Below, piece after piece: positions 34,401 through 40,400 of a stretch of 64,000 nucleotides of DNA. Positions within the stretch are counted from its first letter, which is position 1. Each line of letters begins with the position of its first letter. The DNA lies in the NCBI RefSeq assembly GCF_003018255.1, contig NZ_CP027440.1. One strand, given 5' to 3'. Position numbers: made by a program. The DNA is from Escherichia coli (lineage in GTDB: Bacteria; Pseudomonadota; Gammaproteobacteria; Enterobacterales; Enterobacteriaceae).

Positions 34401-37400
34401 CGTAATTTGTGCCATGCATCATCCCCCTGTTCGACAGCTCTCACGTCGATCCCGGTACGCTGCAGGATAATGTCCGGTGTCATGCTGCCACCTTCTGCTC
34501 AGTGGCTTTCTGTTTCAGGAATCCAAGAGCTTTCACTGCTTCGGCCTGTGTCAGTTCTGACGATGCGCGAATGTCGCGGCGAAATATCTGGGAACAGAGC
34601 GGCAATAAGTCGTCATCCCATGTTTTGTCCAGGGCAATCAGCAGAGTGTTAATCTCCTGCATGGTTTCATCGTTAACCGGAGTGATGTCGCGTTCCGCCT
34701 GACGTTCTGCAGTGTATGCGGTATTTTCGACAATGCGCTCGGCTTCATCCTTGTCATAGATACCAGCAAATCCGAAGGCGAGACGGGCACACTGAATCAT
34801 GGCTTTATGCCGCAACATTCGTTTGGGATGCGACTGCCACGGTCCGGTGATTTCTCTGCCTTCGCGGGTTTTGAATGGTTCGCGGCGGCATTCATCCATC
34901 CATTCGGTAACGCAGATCGGATGATTACGGTCCTTGCGGTAAATCCGGCATGTACAGGATTCATTGTCCTGCTCAAAGTCCATGCCATCAAACTGCTGGT
35001 TTTCATTGATGATGCGGGACCAGCCATCAACGCCCACCACCGGAACGATGCCGTTCTGCTTATCAGGGAAGGCGTAAATTTCTTTCGTCCACGGATTAAG
35101 GCCGTACTGGTTGGCGACGATCAACAATGCGATGAACTGCGCATCGCTGGCATCACCTTTAAATGCCGTCTGGCGAAGAGTGGTGATCAGTTCCTGTGGG
35201 TCGACAGAATCCATGCCGACACGTTCAGCCAGCTTCCCTGCCAGCGTTGCGAGTGCTGTACTCATCCGTTTTATACCTCTGAATCAATATCAACCTGATG
35301 GTGAGCAATGGTTTCAACCATGTACCGGATGTGTTCTGCCATGCGCTCCTGAAACTCAACATCGTCATCAAACGCACGGGTAATGGCTTTTTTGCTGGCC
35401 CCGTGGCGTTGCAAATGATCGATACATAGCGATTCAAACAGGTGCTGGGGCAGGCCTTTTTCCATGTTGTCTGCCAGTTCTGCCTCTTTCTCTTCACAGG
35501 CGATCTGCTGGTAGTGACGCGCCCAGCTCTGAGCCTCAAGACGATCCTGAATGTAATAAGCGTTCATGGCTGAACTCCTGAAAATGGCTGTGAAAATATC
35601 GCCCGCGAAATGCCAGGCTGATTAGGAAAACAGGAAAGGGGATTAGTGATTCAGGCCGTTACCGCGTCCGTCGAGAAAAACTTCCACGAGCAAATCACGG
35701 GTATAAGTGCGCTCGATGCCGCGATGCAGATATAGCCGTCCGCGTAAATTAGCTGATGCAGTCCAGGTACCATCTTTGTGTTTGACCAGCATTCCTGGCA
35801 TGACCGCACCTCGATTAACGGTCTGCGTTCCATAATGTTGATGAACCATAAAAACTCCTGCCCGTAAGCTGGGCTGCTGAACATATAGAGACTTCTGCGC
35901 GTATTCAGGCGGTGGATGGCCGCCGGTTGTCATAACTAAGCCGCCTCGTTGAAGCGACTGAGGTATGAGGTGTTGAGTTGATTTCAGCTGGTCACACCGA
36001 CGTTCACGCGTCCGTTTCACCCCTCGCACTCCCCGGAGCCTGCCGAAATTCAAGCTGCGGATCTAAGCGGTCATCGCAACGGTGAATCAGGCGGTTGCCG
36101 TATCGTTGTGTTGTTGCGACATGGTAATAATAGCTATTGCTATTGGTGGTATCAATACTTATTGCTATTGATTGATGTGTTTTGATATTAACTGTTTGAT
36201 AGCAAAAAGAATTAATTTTGTGACTTGCATCGCATAGCGATAACTGAAGGGAGGTTGTGGTGGTTTTTCGAACGGTTTGTGTGATGAGGGGAGGGGACAA
36301 AAGAAAACCCGGCACGGTGGCCGGGCTAGATCTTAAAGTATTTATCTTTTAGAGATGTAGATGCAAAATTTTTTGCCTTTGAAAATTTTTTGTCATCAGA
36401 AGAGCTTATGAACTCATCTTTTTTGTAGGGAACCGCTAATGCTGCATCACGTCTGCGAGGCAGCTTACTTACTTCCTCGCACTTTTTCATGATCAGTTAT
36501 CCTTTAATAACCTATACAGTTTTGTAGGGGTACATCCTGAGGATATTGTTAAGTTCGTAGCACGCCTTTTCCGCCCACCATCGTATAAACGAAAACCAGT
36601 AGTAGACGAATTTTCTGCGTCAAAAACTATAGACAGTATAACGTCCCCAGACTTTTTTTGCCATTCATATGTGCCGTTAGTTGGTTTTGTCATCTGTAGA
36701 CGCCAGTCAAGAACGCCATCACTTATAGCTGAGAGATCGTTTAGTACGTCTAGTACGGATTGATATCTTTCATTTGGATCTACATGAATGCATTTGTTTA
36801 CTATTGTTATCAATTTTTTATGTATGTGGGAAGGATACTCTTTTAATGGATAGGAGCCATTAATTATCGACTCTCTGAGTTGTTCAATCGTTCTAAATGC
36901 AGATCTTTCTCTTTCAAAATTATCATATCCAACACACATTCTATATATGGTTAATCCTGCCTGATATATGTCATATGTGAAATTATAATCATTTGTTGAT
37001 AAAGAAAAATATTCCGGTGGCACATGAAAATGATATCCAAACTCAGGCGCAGCTCTCGATTCCTCATTGACTAACTGAGACAATCCAAAGTCAGATAGCA
37101 TGGCCTCATTTCTGTTTGATATCATGATGTTATTAGGTTTTATATCAAAATGCATAAGACCTTTTGAGTGTATATGATAAAGCCCACTTAAAAATTGAAT
37201 AGAATACCGTATTATCTCCCTGCTCGTAAGATTAATCTTTTTTATTAATTGGTTTAGCGAACCATTATGATAAAATGGCATGGCTATATAGATATTGCTC
37301 TCACATTGAGCAGCATACTGAACTTGCACAATATTTGGATGTGCATGTTTATAGAGAAGCCTTGCTTCATTAAAGTAGTCGTCGTGGTTAGTGTTTTCTT

Positions 37401-40400
37401 TTTTTTCTATTTCTTTAATCACCAAGTCATGAGCTAGGTGTCTGTCATGAGCCAGATATACTTTTGAAAAACAACCCTGTTCTTCTAGATCACGAATCCA
37501 TTCGAATGCTACATCAGCTCTTTTGTATGGAGTCAGCATCCCCTTACCTCCGCAGATAGTGCAGCCAAAACAGCTTCATTTGTTTCAGTTGTAAAACCAG
37601 AATTATCGATTCCATTTATATTACGGTGTGACTTCAATATTTCTTTATACTCGATCTCTGTTAGGTTCAATGATGACTTCATACCAGATTTTCTAATGGT
37701 GTAATATCTTCTTACATCACTGCTTGAAAATGCTTCTTGAATAACAGCTTCTATATAAAGGCGGTCAATGCTAAGATTATCAGAGTTTGATTCAGTAACG
37801 CGTATAGCAGCTAATTCAACATTATATAAATTAAGAATGTCGAGGATGTTATTTCGCACATACTTTAATTTTTCTGGTGTGTCTAAGGTCGAAGGTATTT
37901 TAATAACATCAACACATTTGAGTGCAGACTCATCAGTGCAATATACAACAAAAGATGTAACTTTGGGCGCCGCCCTAACACCTAGTATTCTCATTTTTTA
38001 TATCCCATTTTAGAATCAGGCTGCGTTTCTGCAGCCTCTCTCATCACCCAAATGTCTAATCAGGCTATTATTGATTATCCATGTTTCCTGTATGTTTGCG
38101 GCATGCTCCCAATAACTTTCCCGAAGATAAACACCCGGTTCATCTCGTCTTTCTCGATTGGGTCCCACGGTGAGTAGCTCTTGTTATCAGAGATAACCAG
38201 CAGTTTATCCTTCATCATTTGCAGGCGCTTAACATGGGCTGTGTCGTCATACAGAAACGCATAGATACCATCACCGTCGAAAGATTTAACAGTGATATCA
38301 ACGAACAGAAGATCACCTGGTTCGATCGTTCCTGACATGCTGTCACCGCGTACGTTAATGATGCGGATATTTTCTGCCTTCCTGCCATCGAACATGTGAC
38401 GAGCATCGTCAAACGAGTACTCAACCGAGCGTAGAACTTCTACAAACTCACGGTTGATGACTCCCGGCCCGGCACTCACTTCTATATCAAGAACGTCAAT
38501 CTTGAAGTATTTGGGATGGTTGGCAGCAGGCTTCCCTGATTGTTGACCGTCATTTCTCATCGGGCCTATGCCTGATGAGAGCCACTCTGTTCGAACACCC
38601 AATGCATTAGCTATTTCAACAATTTTTGTTGAGCCGCGTGCGTTGCCGCTTGTCAGTCTCCAGATTGTGGGTTGAGCTACGCCAGACGCCTTTGCAAGAG
38701 CGCCTTGAGACATTCCAGATTGTTCCATCGCTAGGTTTAAGCGATCAGCAAGAGTTTCTTTTTTCATAAGTTTTAATTTATACGCTTGCGTATTGATGGT
38801 CAAAACACGTTTTGCTATTGATTGGGTTAATACGCATTGCTATTATCCATTCATTGTAATACCAATAGGAATTGATAATGACAAATCAAACCATTCAACT
38901 CGCAATCAGTATTACAGGTAGCCAAAAACGACTGGCAGATCTATGCGGTGTAGCCCAGCCCACTGTTTGGCGTTGGCTACACGGTGGGGGAATTGATGCC
39001 CGCTATGTAATGAAAATTGTCTCAGCCACTGGTGGAAAGATTAAACCAGCAGATATTCGTCCCGACCTTGCACCATTGTTTAACGCGAGTAATTCTGCCG
39101 CCTAAACTGCGGCGTTAACTGATAAGGCAATGATTATGCAACCACTTACATACCAACAGACTAGCGGATTTAGCCCGACTGCGGTGATAAATCGTTCTCA
39201 AATAAAACAGGTGCCAGGCCACGAAAAAATCCGTGATGCCGTTCGCGCCTGGTCGGCTGCAGATAATCAGGATGTTGTTGCCGCACTCATTGTGAATGAG
39301 TATCGGGAGCAGGGCGGCGGCACCATCGATTTCCCTGATGATGTCAGCCGTGCACGCCAGAAGCTGTTCCGCTTCCTCGATAACAAATTCGATTCTGAAA
39401 AATACCGAAATAACGTGCGTGAACTGACCCCGGCAATTCTGGCGGTACTACCGCTGGAATATCGCGGCCACCTGGTTGAGCAGGATAGCTTCATGGCTCG
39501 GCTGGCTGAAATGGAAAAGGAACTCTGTGAGGCAAAGCAGGCGGTCATTCTCAACGCACCACGCCACCAGAAACTGAAGGAGATGAGTGAAGGCATTGTG
39601 TCGATGTTTCGAGTGGACCCGGATCTGGCTGGTCCATTGATGGCGATGGTCACCACCATGCTGGGGGCAATATGACAGGTTCAAAAATGGCGAAAGTCGG
39701 TCTGCGGGAACAGAACCGACTTTCAGGTGCAAATCGTAACACACTCATTGCGGGAGGAATTATGGCAAACACTGCTGAGATATTCAATTTTCCAGTGCCG
39801 GATGCGGCACAAAAGGAGCCGCGCGTGGCAGATCTCGATGATGGTTATACGCGCATTGCAAATGAGTTGCTGGAAGCTGTGATGCTGGCCGGATTAACAC
39901 AGCACCAGCTTCTGGTCTTCCTGGCTGTCATGCGCAAAACATATGGCTTTAATAAAAAACTGGATTGGGTGAGCAACGAGCAACTGTCCGGATTGACCGG
40001 GATATTACCGCACAAGTGTTCTGCTGCAAAAAGTGTTCTGGTAAAGCGTGGGATTTTGATTCAGAGCGGGCGGAATATCGGTATTAATAATGTGGTCAGT
40101 GAATGGTCAACATTACCCGAATCAGGTAAGAAAAATAAAGTTTACCTGAAAGAGGTAAATTTACCTGAATCAGGTAAGAAAAGTTTACCCAAATCAGGTA
40201 AAGGCGTTTACCCGAATCAGGTAAACACAAAAGACAAACTAACAAAAGACAATATAAAACCTTTTTCGTCCGAGAATTCTGGCGAATCCTCTGACCAACC
40301 AGAAAACGATCTTCCTGTGGTGAAACCAGATGCTGCAATTCAGAGCGGCAGCAAGTGGGGGACAGCAGAAGACCTGACCGCCGCAGAGTGGATGTTTGAC

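Follow-up and report, generated by a model that had tools for sequence, protein, structure and literature searches.

The window analysed here is a 64,000-nucleotide stretch of Escherichia coli contig NZ_CP027440.1 (assembly GCF_003018255.1) that includes the immunity region of a lambdoid prophage. Downstream of the repressor gene cI lie three genes encoding an RuvC-fold protein (gene 1), a Hanks-type kinase (gene 2, stk) and a basic micro-protein (gene 3), followed by an intrinsic terminator (Table 1). The original prediction had described a three-gene block on the same strand as cI, and its ORF coordinates, the 7-nt overlap of genes 1 and 2 (ATGCTGA) and the start of gene 3 at 2 nt past the kinase stop were all confirmed in the sequence. 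Translational coupling of the trio is tight. Gene 1 starts 80 nt past the cI stop codon, and the hairpin in this gap falls within the stretch of homology to phage 933W described below, so it is part of the 933W-like block. The GC hairpin and T-run said to close the block were found as well (fold z = -3.25 vs shuffles); they form the sole terminator-like site in a scan of 35900..39100, in which no such site separates cI from the operon. The block is also AT-rich, as had been noted, with a GC content of 0.33-0.37 over 36600..38000 vs about 0.48-0.54 in the flanking regions.

Table 1. Features of the immunity region and its three-gene cargo (window coordinates).
Feature	Position	Strand	Evidence
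oL-like operator cluster, overlapped by a pL-like promoter (36155..36127, minus strand)	36121..36170	.	repeat, motif, consensus scan
Intrinsic terminator, 8-bp GC-rich hairpin then TTCTTTTGT; equivalent of 933W tM and lambda tIMM	36296..36327	-	terminator scan and RNA fold
Gene 3, 54-aa basic micro-protein (933W L0081 / ST933Wp21)	36326..36490	-	
Gene 2, stk, 348 aa, Hanks-type kinase (residues about 20-275) with conserved C-terminal beta-rich domain (about 276-348)	36493..37539	-	
Gene 1, 153-aa RuvC-fold protein (933W L0083 / ST933Wp23)	37533..37994	-	ORF scan
7-bp GC hairpin without U-run, in the 80-nt cI-gene 1 gap	38018..38037	-	RNA fold z = -2.99
cI-type repressor, 230 aa, HTH and S24/LexA-like C-terminal domain	38075..38767	-	phrog_4 E = 1.4e-69; RefSeq: XRE-family regulator
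pRM-like promoter, TTGACC, 17 nt, TAAATT, ending 7 nt ahead of the cI ATG	38775..38803	-	consensus scan, pattern match only
oR-like operator cluster, three CAATAGCAAT-like sites, between cI and cro-like gene	38811..38872	.	motif matches and 49-nt repeat

The identification of the upstream gene as a cI-type repressor held up in the PHROGs comparison. A 242-aa ORF with a TTG start, given as cI in a mechanical listing, was replaced by the 230-aa frame on the basis of the RefSeq annotation and its ATG start. Similarity to the cI of 933W is limited to a 65-residue C-terminal segment with 26% identity, and the immunity type of the repressor and operators, as judged from sequence, is different from that of 933W; the same immunity region is present in phages 4A7, Lambda_4C10, 1W and Perceval. 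Operator-like repeats do bracket the block: a 49-nt direct repeat (73% identical) occurs at 36121-36169 and 38796-38844, and six of the 11 matches to CAATAGCAAT in the window (at most one mismatch) lie in 36130-36170 and 38811-38872, three of them in the latter interval. Promoter-like sites are no more frequent in this region than in shuffled sequence, and the pRM-like site is such a pattern match; its position would imply a cI transcript that is leaderless or nearly so. The pRM-like site at the start of cI and the single terminator after gene 3 are patterns consistent with expression of the operon together with cI. The prophage that carries the block does not belong to the Stx phages; in NZ_CP027462, a genome with 100% identity, it adjoins icd and has DLP12-like genes.

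The kinship with Stk of phage 933W to which the original prediction had pointed proved to be very close. At the DNA level, 1758 nt (window 36300..38057) agree with 933W at 96.9% identity, and the products of genes 1 to 3 match ST933Wp23, Stk and ST933Wp21 over their full lengths at 99%, 97% and 93% identity, respectively, with 11 of the 348 Stk residues differing. The three genes, their order (L0083-stk-L0081), the terminator (homologous to the annotated 933W tM), the position downstream of cI and the low GC content are all shared with the 933W operon. The differences are a DUF3024 gene, which in 933W stands between cI and gene 1 and is absent here, the immunity type, and the non-Stx nature of the present prophage. 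Positions 36300-36325 are common to 933W and phage 4A7, so that, by sequence comparison, the terminator doubles as the left-hand recombination junction of this cargo slot.

In the literature, 933W Stk is described as a eukaryote-like tyrosine kinase that is co-transcribed with cI and aborts superinfection by HK97 (PMC3564112, PMC3681748, PMC8008677, PMC6356687, PMC3430580). The operon is credited to Tyler & Friedman (2004) and Friedman et al. (2011), as cited in PMC3430580 and PMC3564112, which also state that in 933W lysogens a transcript from the maintenance promoter covers both cI and stk. Its activity is limited, if any, in uninfected cells and is activated by HK97 superinfection (PMC3681748). 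The reading of the locus as a prophage-expressed, anti-superinfection kinase module in the rexAB position is therefore supported by the identity with 933W and the published function of Stk; since that function is in print, the reading is right yet already published. By sequence identity the locus is the known 933W Stk system, present as a new allele and not as a new system; on superinfection by another phage, the published system kills the cell. Sameness with a characterised system, which the original prediction had named among the outcomes that would refute it, essentially applies to the kinase. For the 153-aa and 54-aa partners, no characterisation was found in the searchable literature, as the original prediction had supposed.

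The predicted kinase motifs are present in the proposed order, and both the profile search and the structure comparison that had been suggested as checks gave a kinase. The Pkinase profile of Pfam (PF00069) aligns to residues 21-260 (E = 1.6e-46), and Foldseek aligned the predicted fold to solved kinase domains (CaMKII, BTK and BMX) with a target-normalised TM of up to 0.80. Among 24 homologues from several phyla, K42 (VIK), E58, H130-D132-K134-N137 (HFDIKPNN), D150-F-G, P174-P-E176, D190 and R258 are invariant, while the Gly-rich loop is degenerate, with G22 alone invariant. Judged by these residues, the catalytic core is intact. The HFDIKPNN loop is of the Ser/Thr type by sequence, in contrast to the tyrosine specificity given in the literature on 933W Stk. 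The C-terminal domain has invariant W279 and W293 and strands with pLDDT of about 90; no PASTA or other known sensor domain was found in the kinase. Among the best 25 of 34 PADLOC matches, all to kinase families, the mad6 kinase model (E = 8.3e-49, profile positions 61-335 of 659) scores above the PD-T4-6 profiles, the best of which has E = 1.5e-36 over kinase residues 20-273 (profile 18-273 of 292). Unlike the single-gene PD-T4-6, the kinase has a conserved, coupled partner gene on either side in each of the complete loci inspected.

Gene 1 is labelled an RuvC-like resolvase by RefSeq and PHROGs, and its product has a predicted RuvC/RNase H-like fold, but the RuvC catalytic tetrad (E. coli D7, E66, D138, D141) was not found in it. 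Of 125 cluster representatives, 124 have Arg at position 7, and all 125 have Arg or Lys at position 65; R7 aligns to RuvC D7 and R65 to E66 in the Pfam and hhalign alignments. These alignments are weak (hhalign probability 1.5%; Pfam RuvC profile below significance at E = 0.11, covering residues 3-65 only), and gene 1 has no PDB sequence match and no NCBIfam match. E68, E82, E87 and E140 are invariant; they could form an alternative acidic site, and E140 may be equivalent to RuvC D138 or D141. From the weak alignments and the topology we infer that nuclease activity has been lost, and with two catalytic acids gone, the protein is proposed to serve the complex in binding or sensing and not to cut DNA. 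Gene 3, unannotated in the RefSeq record of the present variant, matches phrog_4063 (E = 3.4e-38); the N-terminus of its product reads MKK, Arg13 is invariant, and an aromatic motif lies at the C-terminus.

The three genes travel together well beyond E. coli. Loci from 24 species of Gamma-, Beta- and Alphaproteobacteria, Bacteroidota and Firmicutes were compared, one of which ends inside the kinase gene. In all 24, an Stk-like kinase gene (35-56% identity) comes after an RuvC-like gene at a spacing of -8 to +10 nt, and all 23 complete loci have a homologous basic ORF of 51-66 aa behind the kinase, at -11 to +20 nt. The genes around the trio are entirely different among loci. The same trio stands behind unrelated repressors in Klebsiella and Proteus prophages, and in enteric prophages it always occupies the lysogen-expressed slot after cI; it also occurs beside an OLD-family nuclease, next to a type II methyltransferase on a MobQ element that is mobilisable, on plasmids, and in marine, soil and anaerobic bacteria. 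The family comprises 251 clusters (50% identity, E <= 1e-10) in at least three phyla. The 933W-type allele is found in 195 of 224 cassette-positive complete E. coli genomes and is frequent in Shiga-toxin prophages. This co-travel of the partner genes with the kinase across several phyla is little known, and the coupled trio together with the complex predicted below may lie beyond what the searchable literature covers.

An artificial fusion of the trio (605 residues), modelled with AlphaFold from a 20-row paired alignment and judged by pTM and pLDDT alone, gave a pTM of 0.82, with 76 residues disordered and peptide residues about 10-29 at pLDDT 83-88. The model suggests that the RuvC-like protein, the kinase and the peptide form a ternary complex. 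The locus is probably best explained as the 933W Stk operon held as exchangeable cargo by another lambdoid prophage in an E. coli chromosome, where it fills the space from the cI stop codon to the immunity terminator. Its three proteins would act as a unit, with the kinase and the 54-aa peptide predicted to assemble with the RuvC-fold protein into one complex. In the lysogen, this complex would keep the kinase inactive, the peptide serving either as a labile inhibitor or as a pseudosubstrate. Release would come from something that a foreign phage makes, which could be one of its recombination proteins or DNA that such a protein has branched or annealed, sensed through the RuvC-like subunit. 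The freed kinase would go on to phosphorylate a broad range of host proteins and so halt growth before the invader finishes its cycle. The triggering determinant of HK97 is one that we take to be gp41; by gene order in the RefSeq record, gp41 is the erf gene, encoding an Erf-type annealing protein. This prophage and 933W themselves use Bet/Exo, as opposed to the Erf-type protein of HK97. A more far-reaching version, which we put forward tentatively and with some doubt, is a hitherto unrecognised, obligate three-component machine: an RuvC-fold pseudo-nuclease would sense the recombination proteins of foreign phages or the DNA intermediates that these produce, and gate a Hanks kinase locked by a ~55-aa pseudosubstrate, the whole being a self-contained cassette that moves among immunity slots, plasmids and defence islands.

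Stk might instead act alone, as a single-gene defence like PD-T4-6 or staphylococcal Stk2, with genes 1 and 3 as passengers or minor modulators. The kinase does match the PD-T4-6 models, neither partner matches any PADLOC defence model, and published work, as cited, credits exclusion to the kinase; if stk alone were enough for exclusion, the partners would be modulators and not essential parts. We nevertheless regard this as unlikely, given the strict co-occurrence and coupling of the trio amid wholly different neighbours, the conservation of the partner family at specific residues across 125 cluster representatives, and the whole-chain pTM of the fused model. Active cutting by gene 1, with the kinase sensing infection and switching on the cleavage of phage or host DNA, would agree with the four invariant glutamates and with the resolvase label. 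The basic residues at the D7 and E66 positions are incompatible with a canonical two-metal site family-wide, however, the Pfam RuvC match is not significant, and the literature ties the abortive phenotype to kinase activity, so that such a nuclease effector seems improbable.

The small basic peptide encoded right after a potentially toxic kinase, its core predicted to dock, also recalls a toxin-antitoxin-like addiction cassette, which would mainly stabilise the prophage or mobile element, with the kinase as the toxin, the peptide as a labile antitoxin and exclusion as a side effect. Carriage on the mobilisable element and on plasmids would fit, and there is a precedent in a toxin-antitoxin module of a prophage that pairs kinase with phosphatase and is active in defence (PMC11341870). 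This explanation leaves the conserved RuvC-like component unaccounted for, and it sits poorly with a kinase that is nearly inactive until HK97 infection (PMC3681748) and with the invariable placement after cI in enteric prophages; we consider it rather unlikely. Expression from the lysogenic transcript and the abundance of the 933W-type allele in E. coli, often in Shiga-toxin prophages, could point to a kinase that mainly reprograms host physiology or virulence without any role in defence. The limited activity of Stk in uninfected cells, an attaching-effacing phenotype of an etk wzc kinase double mutant that was unchanged with or without stk (PMC3681748), and the presence of the trio in marine, soil and anaerobic bacteria without a link to virulence make this highly improbable.

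As a further copy of a published exclusion system, this time within a lambdoid prophage that is not an Stx phage, the locus itself changes little. It does show that the stretch from cI to the immunity terminator is a cargo hotspot, with exchange of whole defence cassettes at junctions precise to the base pair. Of wider interest are the partner proteins. To our knowledge, few anti-phage systems are based on kinases, and their means of sensing infection are for the most part not understood. Should the conserved RuvC-like pseudo-nuclease prove to be the sensor of the kinase and the micro-protein its lock, 933W and HK97 would provide a ready genetic system for the mechanism, and annotation pipelines should drop the Holliday-junction resolvase label for gene 1 and regard the kinase as one member of a three-gene system.

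Among known systems, the kinase-kinase-phosphatase (KKP) module of Pf prophages, which shows toxin-like behaviour and anti-phage activity (PMC11341870), is likewise a prophage kinase module, but the trio is without a phosphatase or second kinase and resides in a different phage type. PD-T4-6 of E. coli and Stk2 of Staphylococcus also use a Hanks-type kinase as a defence component, and that of Stk2 is activated by a phage protein. Both are single-gene systems, whereas the present kinase has its own C-terminal domain and, in the complete loci examined, is always accompanied by two conserved partners. Gene 1 is only 13-17% identical to RuvC resolvases (bacterial RuvC and phage bIL67 RuvC), from which it also differs by its Arg and Arg/Lys at the D7 and E66 positions and by being encoded with a kinase instead of ruvAB or phage recombination genes. 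Lambda RexA/RexB occupies the same slot, after cI and before the immunity terminator, and follows the same logic of lysogen expression with abortion triggered by a superinfecting phage. It has no sequence or fold relationship to the trio, and no Rex model is among the PADLOC (for the kinase, the best 25 of 34), PHROG, Pfam and NCBIfam matches listed, where the Pfam search took in the 153-aa and 348-aa proteins. Rex consists of a sensor and a membrane channel, unlike the trio, which combines a kinase with an RuvC-fold partner and a micro-protein.

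The immunity region carries three genes directly behind its cI-type repressor gene (see table), in the arrangement described by the original prediction: cI, three ORFs, a hairpin with a T-run, low GC content and operator-like repeats could all be confirmed at the locus. Sequence inspection shows that genes 1 and 2 share an ATGCTGA overlap, and gene 3 starts 2 nt beyond the kinase stop codon. The block has a GC content of 0.33–0.37, against ~0.5 in the surrounding DNA, and its terminator is the sole terminator-like site found by a terminator scan of 35900..39100. Copies of a 49-nt operator-like repeat at 36121-36169 and 38796-38844 bracket the immunity region, while 6 of the 11 window matches to the operator-like motif CAATAGCAAT lie in 36130-36170 and 38811-38872. 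A pRM-like hexamer pair, recognised by pattern match only, ends 7 nt ahead of the cI ATG; promoter-like sites in the region were not enriched relative to shuffled sequence.

Features of the cI-to-terminator interval, in window coordinates
Feature	Coordinates	Strand	Evidence
cI-type repressor	38075..38767 (from ATG)	-	phrog_4, E = 1.4e-69; RefSeq annotation
Gene 1, 153 aa	37533..37994	-	ORF; starts 80 nt past cI
Gene 2, stk kinase, 348 aa	36493..37539	-	ORF
Gene 3, 54 aa	36326..36490	-	ORF
Terminator, 8-bp GC-rich hairpin then T-run	36327..36296	-	fold z = -3.25

No RNA families were detected by Rfam in 35500..39800. The interval between cI and gene 1 contains a 7-bp GC hairpin that lacks a U-run (38018..38037; fold z = -2.99). 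This hairpin belongs to the 933W-like block and may serve as a signal for processing or attenuation. Between pL/oL and kil (35643..35849), an N-like antiterminator ORF is absent from 35850..36120; 933W and HK97 have such an ORF at this position, whereas phage 4A7 likewise lacks it. The left operon may be N-independent.

In a megablast search of phage genomes, window positions 36300..38057 were 96.9% identical to 933W and ~40 other Stx phages, whose records show this segment as a gene for a "RuvC-like" or hypothetical protein, stk, a second gene for a hypothetical protein, and the terminator tM. The products of genes 1, 2 and 3 share 99, 97 and 93% amino acid identity with ST933Wp23, Stk and ST933Wp21, respectively. 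A novel kinase system that only resembles Stk is ruled out by the 97% identity. Judged by sequence, the window locus is a new allele of the known Stk system, placed in a new immunity backbone: the 933W cI resembles the window repressor only weakly, in the LexA-like domain at the C terminus, and is otherwise unrelated to it, and an extra DUF3024 gene that separates cI from the trio in 933W is missing at the window locus. Papers citing the original work explicitly describe 933W Stk as a eukaryote-like tyrosine kinase that is co-transcribed with cI and aborts HK97 superinfection (PMC3564112; PMC3681748), with like statements elsewhere (PMC8008677; PMC6356687; PMC3430580). As described there, the kinase is quiescent until a heterologous phage infects, whereupon infection aborts. 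The original prediction of a lysogen-expressed kinase acting on superinfecting phage was thus correct but had already been published for 933W Stk, and the kinase is essentially identical to a characterised system. The 933W work has apparently been overlooked in the current defence literature (PMC11341870).

By immunity type, the window repressor groups with those of phages 4A7, Lambda_4C10, 1W and Perceval. Local alignments set the junctions of the block to the base: homology with 4A7 ends at 36325, inside the terminator, and restarts at 38076, at the cI stop codon. The corresponding slot of 4A7 (3207-4623 of its comparison sequence L002, equivalent to window 36326..38075) holds genes for a 353-aa hypothetical protein and an ASCH-domain protein, which may be another exclusion system. 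The base-exact junctions, the differing 4A7 cargo and the missing DUF3024 gene together identify the block as a cassette in an exchangeable cargo slot. This slot, between the cI stop and the terminator, is a cargo hotspot and takes the position that rexAB has in lambda. In 4A7, Lambda_4C10, 1W, 3W and Perceval, which share the cI/cro/cII immunity region of the window prophage, it contains the 353-aa and ASCH-domain cargo.

The composite of window immunity region and cassette was covered over at least 80% of the query in 29 of 5,426 complete E. coli genomes, with 99.9–100% identity in the best 20 of these 29; the cassette in any context was found in 224 of the 5,426. In one identical genome (NZ_CP027462), the prophage adjoins icd and has a mosaic make-up that includes DLP12-like genes; a truncated capsid gene probably renders it defective there. 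An ORF for an EmrE-like small multidrug transporter (41702..42088) lies just past the replication genes, where NZ_CP027462 also has the DLP12-type genes ybcK, ybcL, ybcM, quuD and essD. An IS3-family transposase interrupts the cassette in two E. coli genomes, NZ_CP051219 (hit H71) and NZ_CP031916 (hit H92), perhaps a sign that the kinase module is costly and selected against. Outside prophages, the cassette was seen in two E. coli plasmid places, on a Klebsiella variicola plasmid (hit P0001) and on a Psychrobacter contig with a MobQ relaxase (L030).

Distant relatives of gene 1 occur in Klebsiella and Proteus in the same three-gene order, right after other repressor types and in otherwise different prophages. 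A scan of one genome per species yielded 24 loci in 24 species, spanning Gamma-, Beta- and Alphaproteobacteria, Sphingobacterium, Pedobacter, a Cytophagales MAG, Clostridium carboxidivorans and a Lachnoclostridium MAG. At all 24, an Stk-like kinase gene (35–56% identity) begins −8 to +10 nt from the end of the RuvC-like gene, and in 23 of 23 complete loci a basic ORF of 51–66 aa comes next, at −11 to +20 nt. The neighbours differ wholly by locus: an S24 repressor in Acinetobacter, an OLD-family nuclease in Sessilibacter, a MobQ relaxase and a type II methyltransferase in Psychrobacter, and dinB, thiC or dnaE2 elsewhere. At E <= 1e-10, the family numbers 251 clusters out of 1.84 billion representatives. 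As the trio is constant while its neighbours change completely, the three genes behave as one mobile unit.

Pfam Pkinase matches Stk residues 21–260 (E = 1.6e-46), and in Foldseek the model matches solved kinase domains of both the Ser/Thr and the Tyr class (target-normalised TM up to 0.80). The glycine-rich loop is degenerate; K42, E58, H130/D132/K134/P135/N137, D150-F-G, P174-P-E176, D190 and R258 are invariant in 24 homologues from several phyla, and the kinase is likely to be catalytically competent. W279 and W293 are equally invariant; they lie in a C-terminal domain of ~70 residues that AlphaFold models as four strands and a helix (pLDDT ~90). Foldseek searches with the fused three-protein model returned kinase-domain matches only, none covering this domain. 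The catalytic loop reads HFDIKPNN, a Ser/Thr-type sequence at odds with the reported tyrosine specificity, so that dual specificity is possible. Among PADLOC kinase defence models, mad6 (E = 8e-49) and PD-T4-6 (E = 1.5e-36) matched Stk.

For the 153-aa partner, a PDB profile search gave chance hits only, and NCBIfam and PADLOC gave nothing usable; its likeness to RuvC was found by fold comparison only. A Pfam alignment and hhalign, the latter against E. coli RuvC, agree in placing Arg7 on the catalytic Asp7 and Arg65 on Glu66 of RuvC; as in RuvC, the two residues occupy the ends of strands 1 and 4. Among 125 near-full-length cluster representatives (50% identity), 124 have Arg at position 7, and position 65 holds Arg in 99 and Lys in 26, while E68, E82, E87 and E140 are almost invariant. 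Given these family-wide replacements, we take the product to have kept a RuvC fold but not the canonical metal site. A working resolvase is accordingly unlikely, and PHROGs and RefSeq are probably wrong to label the product a "Holliday junction resolvase".

The 54-aa protein corresponds to phrog_4063, with close relatives in Enterobacterales; searches of NCBIfam and PADLOC gave nothing usable. Features common to the small third ORFs across loci are an MKK start, a single invariant Arg that mostly follows Ser or Thr, and an aromatic motif at the C terminus. PGAP misses the micro-protein in the window allele, and the RefSeq entry for the 100%-identical NZ_CP027462 leaves gene 3 unannotated, though it is conserved across phyla.

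The three proteins were modelled with AlphaFold as a fusion joined by 25-residue Gly-Ser linkers, with a paired alignment of 20 trios. The 605-residue model has a mean pLDDT of 80.2 and a pTM of 0.82; pLDDT falls below 50 solely in the linkers and peptide ends, and peptide residues ~10–29 (LPRRRDAALAVPYKKDEFIS, including the invariant Arg) reach 83–88. With 76 disordered residues, this pTM is near the maximum possible, whereas an independently placed kinase and RuvC-like domain would, by our own uncomputed estimate, give about 0.5–0.6. The artificial fusion thus suggests a ternary complex.

We propose that the three proteins would assemble as one complex, in which the micro-protein may be a pseudosubstrate or labile inhibitor of the kinase and the RuvC-fold subunit may be the sensor. 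This three-component reading competes with a kinase that acts alone, with toxin-antitoxin addiction, with host reprogramming and with an active nuclease effector, against which the Arg and Arg/Lys replacements in gene 1 speak. In the open-access literature searched, no paper was found that describes the trio or pairs a defence kinase with a RuvC-like partner; the cross-phylum trio, the putative pseudo-nuclease and the predicted complex were likewise not found there. The trio findings provide a testable hypothesis on how a kinase defence senses infection.

Under the three-component reading, the junction-resolvase-shaped sensor would respond to a foreign recombinase or its DNA products. The HK97 determinant of exclusion, and hence the Stk trigger, is presumably gp41. 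The HK97 gene order is Gp40, erf, a small "recombinase" and kil (Gp43), and in the RefSeq record the gene between Gp40 and gp42/kil (4176-4781 of HK97 comparison sequence L038) encodes an Erf-like single-strand annealing protein, which by gene order is gp41. Our search of the open-access literature for a link between HK97 gp41 and the tyrosine kinase found nothing relevant. If gp41 is indeed the trigger, Stk is triggered by a recombinase. Both 933W and the window prophage carry Bet/Exo/Gam in place of Erf, and a resolvase-shaped sensor for a foreign recombinase would fit this contrast with HK97.
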